This document shows, in pieces, positions 7,811 to 61,390 of a stretch of DNA of 64,000 nucleotides. The position numbers were made by a program, and so were the translations under genes. This DNA comes from Candidatus Gastranaerophilales bacterium (lineage in GTDB: Bacteria; Cyanobacteriota; Vampirovibrionia; Gastranaerophilales; Gastranaerophilaceae): NCBI GenBank assembly GCA_905234865.1, contig CAJOJE010000001.1:114021-178020 (forward strand). Direction: 5' to 3'. The notes under the pieces are model-generated. The model was not told the DNA's origin and did no database searches. It worked only from the letters and a program-made list of their open reading frames with translations. Within the stretch, counting starts at the first letter, position 1; each line of letters starts with the position of its first letter.

Positions 7811-7861
7811 AAAATTAATTCTAAATAAAAATAAAGTATTTATAAATCGGAAACCATGACA

Positions 7862-9457
7862 TTATTCAAACAGGCTGTTTAGCCTGTCTTGAATTTCGTT
7901 TGAATCCATTTCTTTTGTTATTTGATTAATATCAAGCGCCGCTCTGTAATATTTAGCTGCCTCAACTTTTTCGCCCTTAATTGAAAGACATCTTGCATAG
8001 TTATAATGCGCAAGGGCATAATTCGGGTCATATTCTAGGGCGTTTTTAAAGCAATCAGCCGCTTTTTGAATTTGAGCCAAATCGTCAAGATATATAACAC
8101 CTAAATTGTTATGTGCAATAGCGTAATCGGGCGCATATTTAATGGATAAATCGTATTCCGCAATGGCTTCCGTTAAATTACCCAAGCCCCACAGTAAAAA
8201 TCCTAAATTGCAATGGATTTTAGCATTCTTCGGGTCAAGTTCTATTGCACGTCTGTAAACCTTTAGGGCATTAACGTAATCCTCTTTTTCATAGAATGCG
8301 GCACCAAGCCCTATATATACCTCTAAGTTTGATGTATCCATAATGTATGCTGCAAGAAAAGCAAGAACCGCAGCTTCATTATTTTCAATAAAATGCTGAA
8401 GCAAAAATCCTAAAGTTTGAGCAACTTCGGGTGCTTTTTGATGAGCAGGATTGAGTAAAATTGCGCTTTGATAGTGCGAAACAGCTTTATTGTGTTCGCC
8501 TTTCATAAAATATAAATTTGCGATTTGACTGTGTAAAACGGGATTATTAGGGTGAATTGCGATAAATTTTTGATAAGTTTCAATAGCCGATTCGTACTCG
8601 CCCATTTCTTCATACGCTTGAACCAAGCCGACATAAGCGGGTAAATACAGGCTGTCTATCCAACGAGCCATTTTGTATTCTATAATTGCTTCTTCATGCC
8701 TCCCCAATACTCTGTAAATATCCCCCAAAAGGCAATATAAAGTGGTAAATCCCGGCATTTTATCAATCGCTTTGGAATAATACTCGATGGCTTCCGTATA
8801 TTTCCTTCTTTTAGAAGCCTTTGCCGCAAGGTATAATTCTTTTGCAATACCAAAAATCTTTAATTTTTTTTGTACGTCTTTTTTTGCTTCTTTATCAAAA
8901 GGCAAAGTTAAATAGCTCATAATGAGCTCATATATGCTTTGTAATTTTGAATTTTTCTTTGAGAAAAAAGCAATTCTTAAAAGTCTGTGTTTAAGATAAT
9001 GTATTCTCGAAGTATTTAAGAATGAGGTTTTAAGAGCTTTTTCCGTTTCTTCTAGTGCATCCGTATAACGTTCTTTTTTCTTGTAACAATTTGCAATCAT
9101 AAAATGGCATTGAGCTTTATTTGTTTTTTTATCTCTGAGCGCCATTTCGAAATAGTTTAACGCTCTGTCCAATTCGCCTTTATGATAGAAAGCAAATCCG
9201 ATTTTATAATATATTTCACCGTTATCCACAATGTTTTCGGCTGCTTTTTGGTATTGTAGAATTGCTTCATCTATGTATTGTTTTGCTTGATAAACATCAA
9301 GGTGCCAGTCCATGTATAAATCGCCGAGTTTAATGTTTAATTCGGGATTAGACGGTTCTTGAAGCAAAATTGACTGGCAATATTCGATTGCTTTTTGAAT
9401 TTCGCCTTTATGTTTAAATTTGTCTATTTTCTTATTTATTTGTTTTAAGTCAGTCAA
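7862..9457 (-). CDS. tetratricopeptide (TPR) repeat protein
   Basis: 531 aa of repeated A..Y..A-type 34-residue TPR units (e.g. AIEYYSKAIDKMPGF, ALKVYRRAIELDPKNA). Confidence 0.85.
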   Translation of the reverse strand: MTDLKQINKKIDKFKHKGEIQKAIEYCQSILLQEPSNPELNIKLGDLYMDWHLDVYQAKQYIDEAILQYQKAAENIVDNGEIYYKIGFAFYHKGELDRALNYFEMALRDKKTNKAQCHFMIANCYKKKERYTDALEETEKALKTSFLNTSRIHYLKHRLLRIAFFSKKNSKLQSIYELIMSYLTLPFDKEAKKDVQKKLKIFGIAKELYLAAKASKRRKYTEAIEYYSKAIDKMPGFTTLYCLLGDIYRVLGRHEEAIIEYKMARWIDSLYLPAYVGLVQAYEEMGEYESAIETYQKFIAIHPNNPVLHSQIANLYFMKGEHNKAVSHYQSAILLNPAHQKAPEVAQTLGFLLQHFIENNEAAVLAFLAAYIMDTSNLEVYIGLGAAFYEKEDYVNALKVYRRAIELDPKNAKIHCNLGFLLWGLGNLTEAIAEYDLSIKYAPDYAIAHNNLGVIYLDDLAQIQKAADCFKNALEYDPNYALAHYNYARCLSIKGEKVEAAKYYRAALDINQITKEMDSNEIQDRLNSLFE

Positions 9458-54949: not shown

Positions 54950-55504
54950 TTATACCTCAAAAATTATTCTGTCTAAACTGTATTCATTCTTTTCTGTCAG
55001 CCGTTTTACATAAAAATTTGTGTAATTTTTAATCAAACCTTCTGCTTTACAGTATTTTAAAAATTGTTTTAATAAAGCCATTGTATTTTTTAACCTTCTT
55101 GGCTTAAAATCTCTTTCTAAAAATGCGTTATGAATAGCAATAATATCCTTTGTTTCAAATTTAGTAATGCTATTTTTCTTTAAAATCGGTATAATATCTA
55201 ATTTAAAAGCTGCTTTATAAATTCTGTTTGTTTTCTTGGAACAGTATTTTGCAACATAATTATTTATGAAATATTGAACGGCATCTTCTATTGTTATTAC
55301 GACTTTTTTGTTTGAATTATCAATAAATACACCGAATTTTAATCTTTCATCAGTTTCAACGTATTTATACAAACCCTGTTCAAAGACTATTTTACCCTCA
55401 TTCAAAAGGTGTTCAAGTTCTGTTTTACAATCGCATTCTGCAATCATTTCGATTTCATCAAGAGTAAATTCTTTTAAATGTTGCGCCAATTTTTCTATGT
55501 TCAT
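54950..55504 (-). CDS. stand-alone phage-integrase N-terminal SAM-like (core-binding) domain protein
   Basis: Residues from about 70-165 (TIEDAVQYFINNYV..KKTNRIYKAAFKLDIIPIL..ITKFETKDIIAIHNAFL..RRLKNTMALLKQFLKYCKAEGLI) follow the tyrosine-recombinase core-binding pattern. There is no catalytic R..HxxR..Y domain. Confidence 0.5.
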   Translation of the reverse strand: MNIEKLAQHLKEFTLDEIEMIAECDCKTELEHLLNEGKIVFEQGLYKYVETDERLKFGVFIDNSNKKVVITIEDAVQYFINNYVAKYCSKKTNRIYKAAFKLDIIPILKKNSITKFETKDIIAIHNAFLERDFKPRRLKNTMALLKQFLKYCKAEGLIKNYTNFYVKRLTEKNEYSLDRIIFEV

Positions 55505-56181
55505 ATTATTTGACTTATGACCTCCATATTTATTTCTGTTAAATTATTATCTTTAGCAAATGTTTCCATTTGGTTTATCAATTGAGCAATTTGCCTGAAC
55601 CTATTAAATTTTGAATGTATATATTCAACAGCATCGGGGGTAAATTTTATTTCTGATAATTGGTTAATAATCTGAGATAAATCATTCACTCCAAAGGTTT
55701 CAAATTTTAAAATCTCCGAGAATCTGTCATAAAGATGCTTGTATCTTTCGAGTTTTCTGTGTGCCAAACCCATTCCGATAAAAATTATCGGACAGCCGGT
55801 TTCATCGTGAATATCACGCAGAGTTTCAATTGTTTTGTAGTTATTCATCAAATAATCAATTTCATCAATAAAAATTATCTGCGGATTTTGTTTCAGCTTT
55901 TTAACCACAATATTAAAATTATCAGAAGTCAAAAATCTTGGAATCTCGTCAAGTTCTTTAACCATCTCTTCCAAGAGCCATCTGCCTGTCATAAGATTAG
56001 ATGCTCTTAAATAAATTCCGTCGTACTTGCATGCAAGCCATAATGCAGTTTGAGATTTTCCAAGTCCTGGCTCACCGTAAACAAGTCCCATCTTAGGAAT
56101 ATTCTTTGGTTTATTTATCAAATTTTCAACTAATCCGATAAAGTTTTTCACATTTTGCGTTTTTACAAAAATCTTATTCAT
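55501..56181 (-). CDS. AAA+ transposition ATPase (MuB/TniB/TnsC-like)
   Basis: Walker A GEPGLGKS and Walker B IIFIDEID. Overlaps the transposase stop. Confidence 0.8.
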   Translation of the reverse strand: MNKIFVKTQNVKNFIGLVENLINKPKNIPKMGLVYGEPGLGKSQTALWLACKYDGIYLRASNLMTGRWLLEEMVKELDEIPRFLTSDNFNIVVKKLKQNPQIIFIDEIDYLMNNYKTIETLRDIHDETGCPIIFIGMGLAHRKLERYKHLYDRFSEILKFETFGVNDLSQIINQLSEIKFTPDAVEYIHSKFNRFRQIAQLINQMETFAKDNNLTEINMEVISQII

Positions 56182-57880
56182 AAAGCAGTTTGTACTCCTT
56201 TGTTTGCTTAAACTGTTCTATCCACTCATCTTGCGGATTATGGATTATTAAGTATTCATATTTATCAGCATTATTTTTAAACATCTTTTGAACACCATTT
56301 AAACGGGTATTAAACACTTCTTGAAGAGGTAAATCTAAAGATTGTGTTTCTATTTTTGTTTCCAAGAGTTTTATATCTTCTGTTTCCAGATATTTTTTGA
56401 CAGATTCTACAGTTTTCTTTTTTAATTGCCGTTGCCTTACAATCTTCTGCTTATAATCCTCATAGTCTTTGACGTCGCCAAGTAATTTTACCATCGGATG
56501 CGTTTCAGTTACACGTTCTGCTGTGCATAAATATTCGCCTTTTGGGGTGAAAACCTTAATGTTTGTAATGTCAAATAAGTTATATTTAATTAGTACTTTA
56601 CTTTTAAATCCGTATAATCTTTCATCGAAATAATCGCAGTTTAAAAATCTGATTCCATTTCTTTGAATTGTTTTGACTTCGGTTGCAAGCATTAAATCGT
56701 CAAGAGTATCAATATCAATATTCTGCCGTTTTCTTTCAGATAAAACTTCTGTGATTGTTTTATCCGGAGCATTTGGGCAGGGTTGAGAATTCTTAAAACT
56801 TAACCACATATCAATCATGTTTATTGTTTCATCTATTGTTGGGATATATTCATTATGAAGATTTTTGTGAAATTTTTCATTTCGCATCATATATGCCGGC
56901 TTATTATTTATTGATGAACCTATATAACTTGGCAATAATTTTTCAAATCCTTCCTGAAATTCTTTAAAAAATCTTTCAATAACTTTTGCTCTTGCATTGT
57001 ATGGTCTTGCAAAGACTGTTTCTATTCCGAGTTTTGAATACAATCCCTGAAATCCTAATTCAGTAAATCCTTTATCATCAGTAAAATACTTAGCTCTAAA
57101 AGCTCTGCCGTTATCCTGATATACAACTTTCGGTATCATATCAAGATTGATTATTGAATTACGCAAAGCACTTGCAATACATTGTGTATTTTCTTCAAGC
57201 ATTATTTCATAACCGACTAATGCTGTTGATTTCCAATCCAAAAAGCCAACAAGAGTTGCTCTGCATGGTTTTCCTGTAAACGGATTTATTACCTGAAACG
57301 CTAATTTATGCCCATCAGCGACAAGAATATCCCCGACTTCAAGCAGACTTGCATCACGTTTTATATATGGTTCAACTTTGTCAGAAAGTGCTTTTTCTCC
57401 ATCACGTGCAAGTATCCATTTATCATAATTGTTATTTTTAAACCATTTTGCATATCTTCTGAATGTAATATCAGTTGGAATAAAGTTCTGTCCTTGTTCT
57501 TTTAATTTGTATTTCGTAAGAGCAATTGCTTTTCCAATAGACAATCTATTGGGGTGCAAAAGTAATCCCATAAATATTTTTATTTCGTCATCATTAAGTA
57601 CGGTTCTGTAATCATTAACACTACTATATTTATACTGTGGCAATAACTTCGTATAATCTTCTATTCCGTTTAACATTGCATACCAACGATGCAAACTGCC
57701 GCGAGATATTTTACCTATAATCTCAAACAAGTGTGAATTTGAAGTATTATACAATTTTACAAAATCATAATCAGCTTGAAGTTTGTTTTTTGATTTCTTC
57801 CTGAACTCAAGCCACTGATGAACTACATCAAGTCTTGCTAAAGCGATTTGTTTACATTTTTCGGGAGTAAATTCTGCCAT
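56174..57880 (-). CDS. DDE transposase, MuA/TnsB/TniA-like (rve core)
   Basis: Start placed at MAEFTPEK, preceded by AAGGAG. DDE candidates are VADGHKL, YQDNGRAF and AKVIERFF. N-terminal HTH region and a Mu-transposase-like C-terminal beta domain. Confidence 0.88.
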   Translation of the reverse strand: MAEFTPEKCKQIALARLDVVHQWLEFRKKSKNKLQADYDFVKLYNTSNSHLFEIIGKISRGSLHRWYAMLNGIEDYTKLLPQYKYSSVNDYRTVLNDDEIKIFMGLLLHPNRLSIGKAIALTKYKLKEQGQNFIPTDITFRRYAKWFKNNNYDKWILARDGEKALSDKVEPYIKRDASLLEVGDILVADGHKLAFQVINPFTGKPCRATLVGFLDWKSTALVGYEIMLEENTQCIASALRNSIINLDMIPKVVYQDNGRAFRAKYFTDDKGFTELGFQGLYSKLGIETVFARPYNARAKVIERFFKEFQEGFEKLLPSYIGSSINNKPAYMMRNEKFHKNLHNEYIPTIDETINMIDMWLSFKNSQPCPNAPDKTITEVLSERKRQNIDIDTLDDLMLATEVKTIQRNGIRFLNCDYFDERLYGFKSKVLIKYNLFDITNIKVFTPKGEYLCTAERVTETHPMVKLLGDVKDYEDYKQKIVRQRQLKKKTVESVKKYLETEDIKLLETKIETQSLDLPLQEVFNTRLNGVQKMFKNNADKYEYLIIHNPQDEWIEQFKQTKEYKLLYE

Positions 57881-58080
57881 GTGTATGCTCCTTTGCATAC
57901 ACATTAATCGCTCTTTGTTACGGAAACATCAAGTCCTAAATCTCTTTTCCGCCTGTCAAATCAAAGATTTGAAACGGCGGCATCGTAGTGTTTCGTGCCC
58001 TGCTCGTCTTGCCCTACAGCAAGCCGACACCGGCACTTCACACCGGCTCACGCATCTTAATCTCAGAGACATTTCGACAC

Positions 58081-59385: not shown

Positions 59386-59487
59386 TTTAAACTCCTCTGT
59401 TGATTATAAAAATATTCTACACCAAAAACCCCGCCTTATAAAGACGGAGTTTTGTTTTGTATATGTATATGTATGTTAGTTTTGATT

Positions 59488-60858
59488 TTACCAAATGAAA
59501 TCTACAAATGAATCCCAAGCGCTTGATATGCCGTCGCCTAACCATGAGAAGAAACTGCCTATTCCGTTCATACAGCTTCTGATAAGGCCGGGTTTATCTG
59601 CTTTACAACCGAGAGTTTGAATTGCTTCTTCTCTGGTGCAGCCTGTGGATTTTCTTAAAGCAAATATTTTTGCTTCATCTTCATCAGAGTATTTGTCCGG
59701 TTCTTTAGCGAGTTCTTCAGGTACCTCATATCCTAAAGATTTCAAGTATTCAACCGCTTCATCTCTTTTGAAGCCGTAAATTAAAAGATTGTTTAATTTT
59801 TGTTCAATTTCCGATGTATCACCTTTAGCTTTTGCTTTAGAACCGAGTTGTTGAATTGCTTCATCTCTTGATATGCCGTATTTGTCCATCAAGAGTTGAA
59901 TTTGTTTTTCGGTACCTTCGTTATAAATACCCAGTTTTGCCTGTTCTTCGTCGCTTACGCCGTAGCCGTTAGCTTTTGTTGCTTGAAGCGCTTCGTTTAT
60001 ATTGCCGTAAACACCGGCATCAACAAGTTCTTGAAGATCTTGTGCGGTTAGCATTATTTGATTGCCGTCAGCATCGACTTTAACGGGTACCTGTCTGCCG
60101 TTTACGTTATATTGTTGCGTCGTAACGCCTTGATTAGGTCTGGTAACCACATACCCCGGACCCCAAGGATATTCGAGAAGTCCCGAAGGATTTGTACCGT
60201 TTGTTCCGTTGGTACCATTTGTACCATTTGTGCCGTTAAATCCGTTAGTGCCGTTAACGGCGTTTCTTCCCGCAATTCCGTTTAAACCGTTTGTGCCGTT
60301 AGTTCCGTTGGTTCCATTTGTGCCGTTTCTACCGTTGGTACCGTTAGTTCCGTTCAACCCGTTGGTTCCGTCGGTTCCGTTTGTGCCGTTTCTACCATTG
60401 GTACCGTTAGTTCCGTTTAAACCGTTGGTTCCGTTTGTGCCGTTTCTACCATTGGTACCGTTAGTTCCGTTAGTTCCGTTCAACCCGTTGGTTCCGTTTA
60501 AACCGTTTCTTGTAGTCGGGTTTTGAGTAATAGGGTTAGAAGAATTAGACGGTTGATTTGTTCCGTTGCCGTTATTTTGCGGTACAATTCCCGCACCGCC
60601 CGAAGTGAAATCAAATATCGTACCTGTTGTTTGATCATACCAGTTTTTTGTTGCCAAACTGTCTTGACCAAGCTGTTGAAGTTGAAAAATACCGGTATCG
60701 GTATCTTGAAGCGCATAAAATCCGCCTTGGTTATATATCGACGTAGGTGCGGTACCAACGCCCGTTGTTGTGGCATGACCTGCTTGAATACCTGCATAAC
60801 GTCCTTGAAATTTTGCTAATTCATTTGCGGTTGTAGGATTAAAAAACTCGTATCCCAT
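59488..60858 (-). CDS. collagen-like (G-T-N)n repeat protein with conserved N-terminal domain and repeated C-terminal helical motifs
   Basis: 456 aa. The first roughly 80 aa are shared with the neighbouring ORF. Residues 119-223 form 35 G-X-Y triplets. The C-terminus carries 3-4 G(I/F/C)xR(D/E)EA(I/V)xxLG motifs and a Trp/Phe-rich tail. No signal peptide. Confidence 0.7.
60190..60507 (-). repeat. 9-bp-periodic coding tandem repeat (GTN/GLN/GRN triplets)
   Basis: Seen directly as reiterated ccgtt(g/a)gt(t/a)cc-type units. The plus-strand shadow ORF 60209-60526 (VPF/VPL repeats) reflects the same periodicity. Confidence 0.85.
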
Positions 60859-60898
60859 CTTGATTCTCTCTTTCTCTAATACCCGTTTTTAAAGATGA

Positions 60899-61237
60899 TT
60901 ATTTTGCTAAATTTGCTATATCGCCGGCGGACATATTGTTTGATAAACTGTCTGAACTAAAAATGCTTGCAGAATTATTTTTAAAAGAAAATGTGTTTTT
61001 TAATGATTGACTGTACCATTCGTTGGTATTAATGCTGCTTTTACCTAATTGTTGAAGTTGAAATAAGCCTGTGTCGGTATCTTGAAGTGCATAAAATCCG
61101 CCTTGGTTAAATGCTTCCGTCGGTGCCGTTGCGGTTCCTGTTACTCTTGCATGCCCTGCCATAGAACCTATTAAAGTACCTTGAAAACGACCCAATTGGT
61201 TAGCTTTTGTGGGATCAAACATGATAAAATTGCTCAT
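60899..61237 (-). CDS. hypothetical protein, N-domain paralog of the collagen-like protein
   Basis: 112 aa. [22 protein letters not shown] is nearly identical to the neighbouring protein. Confidence 0.6.
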   Translation of the reverse strand: MSNFIMFDPTKANQLGRFQGTLIGSMAGHARVTGTATAPTEAFNQGGFYALQDTDTGLFQLQQLGKSSINTNEWYSQSLKNTFSFKNNSASIFSSDSLSNNMSAGDIANLAK

Positions 61238-61390
61238 TTATTATTTTCCTCTCAATTGTCCTCGTACAATAATAAAGAATTTATGAAAAGAAAAATTGCC
61301 TAAAATTTATAATAAAGATATATAACCCATATATAACAAGGGTTTTAGGATGTTACAAAACTTAATATAAGTTTGTGATAGATTAAAAAT

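Follow-up and report, generated by a model that had tools for sequence, protein, structure and literature searches.

What is the role of two adjacent genes whose products share an N-terminal domain, continue into different C-terminal parts, and lack any export signal? Such a pair lies on the minus strand of a 64,000-nucleotide stretch of DNA from a Candidatus Gastranaerophilales bacterium (the window; positions 114,021 to 178,020 of contig CAJOJE010000001.1), which has a G+C content of ~33% and belongs to a 1.87-Mb assembly that is 99.6% complete. Gene S (positions 60899..61237 of the window; this and all other features of the pair are on the minus strand) is an open reading frame (ORF) of 112 codons that encodes a free copy of the shared domain, referred to here as the head, and a short tail. 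Gene L (59488..60858) encodes a 456-residue protein made up of a head, a spacer, helix-hairpin repeats, and an amphipathic tail. The reading favored here, with a rough probability of 0.35, is that L is a membrane tether on the cytoplasmic face and that S is a free head paralog, which either assembles together with L or competes with it for the same partner.

According to this reading, the C terminus of L would hold the protein at the membrane, with its bulk on the cytoplasmic side. The anchor would be a 33-residue in-plane amphipathic helix in the window strain; in sister strains, a Gly-zipper hydrophobic hairpin combined with a cationic amphipathic helix would take its place. Ahead of the anchor would come four helix-hairpin repeats, preceded in turn by a flexible spacer that varies in length and by the 90-residue head. 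In the window strain, a tract of 35 G-x-N triplets might form a collagen-like rod, with L trimerized. S would descend from a tandem duplication that copied only the 5′ end of L, with gene conversion keeping it similar to its parent. The heads would bind one another or a common partner, and S could cap, extend, or titrate the membrane-tethered assembly of L. The membrane binding, the cytoplasmic location, and the association of heads are all predictions from sequence.

A preliminary description of this DNA had outlined the two ORFs correctly. It had also recognized the ~80 shared N-terminal residues (its consensus fits the alignment), the Ser/Asn-rich tail of S, the collagen-like tract followed by helical repeats in L, the absence of signal peptides, and the novelty of the shared domain; the analysis bears out each of these points. 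In BLASTP, residues 4-93 of S align with residues 3-92 of L without gaps, with 50 identities in 90 positions (56%) and an E value of 4e-33. Together with the family alignments, this comparison delimits the head to amino acids 1-92 of S (60962..61237) and 1-90 of L (60589..60858). The secondary structure predicted by AlphaFold2 (AF2), at low confidence, consists of a helix (residues 12-26 in S and 12-25 in L), a Gly/Ala/Thr loop, and four to five short β-strands. The core motif of the S head is APTxxxNQxGxYAxQDxDTG, and the invariant core of the L head in an alignment of 9 to 14 orthologs is APTS..NQ.G...A...D.G.

In S, the head is followed by a short Ser/Asn stretch and a C-terminal helix with the motif NNMSAGDIANLAK (60902..60940; consensus NMSAxxIAxL[DA] in the alignments). 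This motif is unique in the genome and is retained in all aligned S orthologs, including the distant ones. A related motif, SMSASDIA, directly follows the head in several L orthologs. Since S consists of the head and an NMSAxxIA motif that is also present behind the head in L orthologs, it appears to have been copied from the first ~115 codons of L. The closest homolog of S outside this genome, P0002 (72% identity), is encoded on a 1195-bp metagenome contig (L031) and ends in ...SSYISSNFFCV in place of NMSAxxIAxL, which may reflect a frameshift or a 3′ assembly error.

The head has no match in Pfam, NCBIfam, PHROGs, PADLOC, or the PDB. Pfam scans of every member of the family gave only scattered single weak matches in this region, and profile searches of the PDB returned a designed helical repeat and noise, but nothing else. 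The head therefore appears, from these comparisons, to be a new domain family without detectable relatives. It is found in two copies in the genome of the window, those of S and L, and in each of the other genomes of the genus (11 of 11), where the usual finding is an S-L pair of ~110 to 129 and ~350 to 455 residues. S orthologs of 107 to 119 residues adjoin L in genomes of the genus and in more distant lineages, and the L orthologs have 348 to 456 residues. No hit with a significant E value was obtained in ~25 other genera of the family, and a profile search of 301 genomes of the class added a single further genus (G306). When 1.84 billion cluster representatives were searched exhaustively with HMMER, 16 proteins were obtained at E ≤ 0.001. 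Three further loci came from 185,579 species genomes, two from the JGI metagenomes, and none from IMG/VR. All members belong to one clade of Gastranaerophilaceae (Ca. Galligastranaerophilus and its neighbors), and the related loci and homologs are labeled Candidatus Gastranaerophilales and Candidatus Galligastranaerophilus gallistercoris. Gastranaerophilales are nonphotosynthetic Melainabacteria of animal guts. Judged by this distribution, S and L are a tiny, lineage-restricted orphan family; the preliminary description had named an occurrence in this pair only as a refuting observation, and the domain is indeed confined to this pair and its orthologs. One metagenome-assembled genome (MAG; G002, 8% contamination) carries the same S-L locus on two contigs (L010 and L011; CAYXRM010000005.1 and CAYXRM010000002.1). 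It is labeled “uncultured Gammaproteobacteria,” but its genes are Gastranaerophilales-like, and it looks like a mislabeled bin with a duplicated region.

The comparison of S with L within genomes gives 0.17-0.45 nonsynonymous substitutions per site (dN), ~0.7-1.9 synonymous substitutions per site (dS), and a dN/dS ratio of ~0.2-0.45, which indicates purifying selection. For the head, L-L identity between genomes averages 73%. In the divergent lineages, S is closest to the L of its own genome (72 versus 59%, 74 versus 65%, and 56 versus 50% identity). Identical nucleotide runs of 31 to 41 nt are shared by S and L in five of nine genomes, compared to a maximum of 26 nt in 58 between-lineage comparisons. 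In the tree, S and L cluster together for L010 and for L005/L009, and S of the window groups with S of L003. These patterns would be explained most simply if a partial duplication occurred once, long ago, and gene conversion then acted in patches. Much of the matching of S and L within genomes can be ascribed to these conversion tracts at the nucleotide level; co-evolution of interacting heads may be an alternative cause.

The pair can also be compared with its chromosomal neighbors. Across six related loci, speB (agmatinase) retains 68-74% identity and the BFN gene, where the locus includes it, 75-81%. At the same loci, identity falls from 67% down to 30% in the head of L and from 56% down to 15% in its C-terminal half. 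By these values, the pair is evolving much faster than its flanks.

Alignment of 9 to 14 orthologs divides L into five parts. Behind the head, residues 91-228 form a low-complexity spacer, which varies from ~60 to 140 residues across orthologs and is aperiodic and S/T/N-rich in them. The conserved C-terminal body (residues 229-422; 59593..60174; delimited by alignments and AF2) opens with a small β motif, YPWGxGY...VDxxG, and contains four helix-turn-helix repeats of ~35 residues each with the pattern ..L..L...G.[ST]R[DE]EA[IV]..L...G. The AF2 model of L, built from 14 aligned sequences, has a predicted local distance difference test (pLDDT) score of 49.8 overall and is usable over residues 250-420 alone, which are helical with pLDDT values of 70 to 86. 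Apart from weak, subthreshold similarity to the UBA_4 and ANTAR domains, the repeats match nothing but a designed helical-repeat protein in the PDB. The UBA_4 match is below the threshold in 6 of 14 members (best E value, 0.0027) and is accompanied by no Foldseek fold match; Foldseek searches of the PDB and BFVD gave no hits at E ≤ 0.001.

The final part of L (residues 423-456; 59491..59592), recognized by its hydrophobic moment and in the AF2 model, is a predicted 33-residue amphipathic helix with one aromatic and hydrophobic face and the other composed of Gly, Ser, and Asp. Its hydrophobic moment at 100 degrees is 0.44, a value equaled in none of 2000 shuffles, and its mean hydropathy is below the level of a transmembrane helix. 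AF2 models the tail as one long helix, at low confidence. Moments of 0.40-0.48, likewise unmatched in 2000 shuffles, are found in the window tail and in five of six other family tails tested; the tail of the divergent member P0010 has a moment of 0.19, which is not significant. In the genome of the window, a tblastn-type search and regular-expression scans of all ORFs in six frames revealed no second protein with this tail, the NMSA motif, or several copies of the helical repeat.

Behind the first repeats, three C-terminal forms of L are found. Type A is that of the window. Type B contains a QDEQGFIGKAWNG motif, a SHOCT-like pair of helices, a Gly/Ala-zipper segment, and a terminal cationic amphipathic helix. 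The zipper segment has hydropathy of transmembrane grade (1.69 on the Kyte-Doolittle scale in a 19-residue window) and no Pfam match, and the terminal helix combines a moment of 0.51-0.58 with a net charge of +5 to +8. In type C (P0013), a Gly-zipper in the middle of the protein matches the Pfam family Gly-zipper_Omp (PF13488; 26.1 bits versus a cutoff of 25 bits). No Pfam Gly-zipper match was obtained for L of the window. Types A and B coexist in one genus with heads that are ~75% identical, and a module similar to the type B C terminus is also found on two proteins without a head. These C-terminal parts look like exchangeable modules, all of them predicted to bind membranes, and no toxin domain was detected in any of the three types. 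The preliminary description had seen a conserved N terminus carrying variable payloads. That pattern extends to three C-terminal types across strains, two of them in one genus; the payloads, however, are all predicted membrane-binding segments and not enzymes. Because the variable modules appear to be membrane-binding and are not enzymes, a tether fits the data better than a secreted cargo.

In 19-residue windows, Kyte-Doolittle hydropathy peaks at 0.46 in S and at 0.64 in L, where the peak lies at the C terminus, and hydropathy analysis reveals no Sec, Tat, or lipoprotein signal on either protein (N termini, MSNFIMFDPTKAN among the two). According to the positive-inside rule, a basic C-terminal helix behind a hydrophobic hairpin leaves both ends of a protein in the cytoplasm. 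Since type B L combines such a hairpin with a strongly basic helix, both of its ends are predicted to be cytoplasmic. The default reading for the family is that the head would be cytoplasmic and L would be attached to the membrane from the inside; both the location and the membrane binding are predicted.

Tethers such as ZipA join a binding domain to a membrane anchor through a flexible linker, and FtsA and MinD are held by an amphipathic membrane-targeting helix at the C terminus. Similarly, L has a globular end and a long and variable low-complexity spacer, ends in an amphipathic helix (type A) or in a transmembrane segment with a cationic amphipathic helix (type B), and has no signal peptide. 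This is a functional analogy drawn from general knowledge, and L has no sequence or fold relation to any of these proteins. Its orientation is the reverse of that of ZipA, the polar face of the type A helix is acidic and not basic as in the FtsA/MinD-type helices, and no link of the pair to division genes is seen.

Several observations weigh against a cytoplasmic tether. The type A tail carries three Asp residues on its polar face, and such acidity is unusual in a helix binding to the anionic membranes of bacteria. Extracellular, spore, and phage proteins, rather than cytoplasmic ones, are the typical carriers of long S/T/N-rich spacers and collagen-like tracts. The fast evolution and the swapping of C-terminal modules, in turn, would suit a surface-exposed or conflict protein better than a housekeeping scaffold. 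The predicted binding between heads comes from paralogy and concerted evolution only, the latter of which gene conversion alone could explain. The fold of the head does not help, because its pLDDT values of 30 to 50 in the models of both S (18 aligned sequences; pLDDT, 45) and L permit no fold-based inference. Finally, in the Gastranaerophilales MAG with locus L012, an L of 404 residues directly follows speB across a 142-bp gap (7844-7985), and there is no S, so that S either is dispensable or has been lost in that lineage.

Some of these observations could be accommodated if L were exported by an unrecognized Sec-independent route as a surface or secreted fiber, with the head as an export or assembly signal, the spacer or collagen-like tract as an extracellular stalk, and S as a co-exported subunit, in the manner of major and minor subunits. 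The head lies strictly at the N terminus, starting within the first few residues of every aligned member, and is followed by spacers rich in Ser, Thr, and Asn. Its identity falls to 30% at loci where speB and BFN hold 68-81%, as seen in surface antigens. The collagen-like tract of the window strain (residues 119-223; 60190..60504), which lies within the spacer, also points in this direction, as it resembles regions of surface adhesins and phage fibers. It consists of 35 G-x-N triplets without Pro and is matched by the Pfam Collagen family (PF01391) over residues 121-221 with 58.6 bits (cutoff, 27.2 bits; E value, 5e-16). Gly is found in 34 of the 35 triplets and Asn in 33, the X position is occupied variously by T, L, R, I, V, and F, and all four Gly codons are used. 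Tandem Repeats Finder reports a 9-bp period with 68% matches. A fresh product of slippage was rejected as the source of the tract, given that its 9-bp units are only 68% alike and Gly is kept across four codons; this pattern points to selection for the G-x-N periodicity, which counts in favor of a fiber. The tract might form a rod or a trimer; AF2 leaves it unstructured (pLDDT, 25 to 36), and it has few charged residues. It is found in the window strain only, as eight aligned L orthologs and the other L-type members read have S/T/N spacers.

In the Bacillus protein BclA, a targeting domain at the N terminus precedes a collagen-like region, whose length varies, and a C-terminal domain. L resembles BclA and the streptococcal Scl proteins in that its N-terminal domain leads into an unbroken G-X-Y tract scoring above the Pfam cutoff. 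It differs from them in its triplet (G-T/L/R-N, without Pro and with almost no charged pairs), in the restriction of the tract to the window strain, and in the lack of a signal peptide, an LPXTG motif, and a C1q-like C-terminal domain. Partial NCBIfam matches of L to Scl/Lcl reach 58 bits, compared to an equivalog cutoff of 325 bits.

The export of such a fiber meets with several difficulties. There is no signal peptide on either protein, and searches of the genome found no type VI secretion system (T6SS) sheath protein VipB/TssC, no C39 peptidase of a double-glycine exporter, and no flagellin, which was taken as a proxy for export through the flagellar type III system, the flagellar export gate itself and the type VII secretion system not having been searched. 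The best genome match to HlyD of the type I secretion system (T1SS; TIGR01843) scores 57 bits versus a cutoff of 209 bits, but generic membrane-fusion proteins are present below this cutoff, a point in favor of a fiber. The type A end, D-F-I-W, resembles the acidic-plus-hydrophobic extreme C terminus of some T1SS protease and lipase substrates. Types A, B, and C of L do not share a conserved C terminus, however, and the type B and C ends, a transmembrane hairpin with a cationic helix or unrelated sequence, offer no common C-terminal export signal. The tract contains NGT sequons, but N-glycosylation of these was rejected, as neither GT41 nor STT3/PglB enzymes are encoded in the genome; this, too, speaks against a surface location, as does the occurrence of the head on no other protein in the searches run. 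A double-glycine leader centered on the invariant FQG was likewise rejected in the absence of a C39 exporter, and the spacing of FQG presumably does not fit the leader consensus. On balance, a surface fiber is unlikely. In the sister genus G016, an ORF resembling FliP is located near BFN (L026:11-685), so that the possession of flagella seems to vary across the family.

The secretion-targeting or effector pattern proposed in the preliminary description meets the same obstacles: besides the missing T6SS sheath, flagellin, C39 exporter, and bona fide T1SS HlyD, the pair lacks a toxin domain, and no immunity-like gene lies downstream. The proposal is thus only partly borne out, in that the domain is new and N-terminal and the parts behind it vary, but nothing speaks for secretion targeting or effector delivery. 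Polymorphic effectors with a conserved N-terminal trafficking domain (LXG/WXG100 of the type VII system, MIX/PAAR/Rhs of the T6SS, and CdiA) share with the pair a conserved N terminus, a strain-variable C terminus, and a small gene directly upstream. In contrast to these systems, S-L is present as one locus per genome, without a toxin domain, immunity gene, or T6SS. Its head is predicted to be β-rich and not a helical hairpin, its variable parts are predicted to anchor the protein at membranes, and the small gene upstream encodes a paralog of the head itself. The gene downstream of the pair is always BFN at loci with readable flanks.

A module for biological conflict would account for the fast evolution in a different way. 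In the manner of a bacteriocin, an abortive-infection system, or a toxin-antitoxin pair, oligomerizing heads might enable the C terminus of L to damage membranes, with S as regulator or trigger, possibly through amyloid-like templating by the Q/N/G-rich and β-rich head. The compact two-gene operon with a motif common to adjacent genes, the matching of the two heads within genomes, the swapping of C-terminal modules between membrane-active types in one genus, and the presence of the type-B-like module on headless proteins would all be in keeping with this possibility. The head also combines low AF2 confidence with predicted β-strands, and the type C Gly-zipper of P0013 has weak matches to two PADLOC candidate models; on the other hand, no PADLOC match was obtained for S, L, P0003, P0016, or P0017. 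Amyloid-signaling pairs share an amyloid motif of ~20 to 40 residues, located at the C terminus of the effector and the N terminus of an adjacent sensor (NLR or TPR) (10.1101/2024.11.07.622273). As in such pairs (HET-S/NWD2 of fungi, the bacterial BASS pairs, and Bab/Agp of E. coli), S and L are encoded by adjacent genes, their common element matches best within the genome, and one partner appears to be membrane-directed. However, the element of S and L spans 90 residues with an N-terminal helix and is N-terminal in both proteins, and S, being only a head, is no counterpart of an NLR, TPR, or nuclease sensor. The pair comes with neither a toxin domain nor an immunity gene, it occupies a fixed slot in the core chromosome in 11 of 11 genomes of the genus and not a defense island, and the retention of L without S at L012 indicates that S is no essential antidote. 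Such a module is quite unlikely. Curli offer a looser parallel, in that a membrane-associated nucleator, CsgB, and a polymerizing subunit, CsgA, are tandem paralogs. S and L likewise pair a protein predicted to be tethered with a free one, and their conserved core is Q/N/G-rich. This is an analogy only, since S and L lack Curlin repeat matches, Sec signals, and CsgG-type export genes, and a curli-like reading was rejected for want of a Curlin match.

Ideas from both directions meet in the proposal that the head is a new N-terminal element for assembly or export. It might then serve in the Sec-independent delivery, by a pathway yet to be described, of a fast-evolving stalked surface fiber, which in the window strain would bear a proline-free G-x-N collagen rod. 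Alternatively, it might be a self-templating switch by which S triggers a membrane-permeabilizing L. In either version, this proposal is highly unlikely.

The collagen-like tract raises one more alternative, namely, that the pair is a remnant of a phage tail fiber or of a structural gene of a mobile element, with the head as a baseplate attachment and the tract as a shaft. PHROG tail-fiber families do match L, and a Mu-like transposon is located ~1.1 kb downstream of the pair. These matches are nevertheless confined to the collagen tract, which the orthologs lack, and S has no PHROG match at all. Nor did the head, for which the preliminary description had allowed a phage-fiber N terminus as a possible identity, produce a tblastn match in the 50,697 phage genomes of INPHARED, a match in PHROGs or IMG/VR, or a fold match in BFVD. 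The locus is part of the syntenic core chromosome also in genomes without the transposon. A phage origin is extremely unlikely and in practice refuted by these results.

The organization of the locus agrees with a chromosomal unit of two genes. A Shine-Dalgarno-like GAGAGGA (61247..61253, read from the sequence) is located 9 nt upstream of the ATG of S, within the 153-bp region that is common to S and the divergent speB; no strong match to the σ70 consensus was found in the region upstream of S. The 40-nt spacer between S and L (60859..60898) contains the purine-rich ribosome-binding stretch AGAGAAAGAGAGA, and a terminator scan detected no minus-strand terminator between the two genes, which probably share one transcript. 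L is followed by an intrinsic terminator (59425..59453), a hairpin with a 13-bp stem and a subsequent U run. RNA folding gives it a minimum free energy of −17.9 kcal/mol and a z-score of −4.97, with equal stability in none of 200 shuffles. This hairpin stands between the S-L operon and the BFN gene, which has its own ribosome-binding site with a promoter-like match ahead of it. The ribosome-binding sites on both genes, the 40-nt gap, the terminator behind L, the separate ribosome-binding site of BFN, and the conserved gene order thus identify S-L as a self-contained bicistronic unit of the core chromosome and not a part of a prophage.

At every locus whose flanks could be read, to which the statements on synteny apply, the order is recJ, coaE, speB, the S-L pair, BFN, DUF1858, a flavodiiron protein, and a giant GT5 glycosyltransferase. 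In the window, this order is broken after DUF1858 by the Mu-like transposon. A Mu/Tn7-like transposase (Mu-transpos_C and rve) and an AAA/TniB-like gene (55501-57904) are located there, between the DUF1858 and flavodiiron genes. BFN was rejected as a functional partner of the pair: it is found in 19 of 19 other genera checked, and the terminator separates it from L. The genes upstream of BFN are unrelated in the 14 head-lacking genera in which this region was examined. In G036, a type IV pilin-like gene with the N terminus ...AFTLAEVLITLVIIGVIAAI is located upstream of BFN (L017:3035-3760), and the slot upstream of BFN is therefore variable across the family. In another Gastranaerophilales lineage (L033:6001-9092), BFN is preceded by P0030, a protein of 616 residues with a type-B-like Gly-zipper module, and by a 351-residue protein that matches the Pfam Annexin family (31.9 bits versus a cutoff of 25 bits), a rare case of a bacterial annexin. 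These two proteins share an 18-residue N-terminal motif, VDYSxAYDxI (E value, 3e-4). They were rejected as carriers of a diverged head (hhalign probability, 0.2).

Gastranaerophilales are uncultured relatives of cyanobacteria, and their cell biology is almost unstudied. The S-L locus defines a new domain family, and the pair, which is probably membrane-associated, evolves several times faster than its neighbors and exchanges its predicted membrane-binding end between related strains; it is of no wide consequence until a function is shown. The tract of 35 G-x-N triplets, kept despite extensive synonymous divergence, provides a natural test of a proline-free collagen-like helix. Were one of the rival explanations true, the pair would represent a new surface structure or a new cell death or defense module. 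If L is indeed a tether, the pair would be a lineage-specific element of the envelope or cytoskeleton in Gastranaerophilales.

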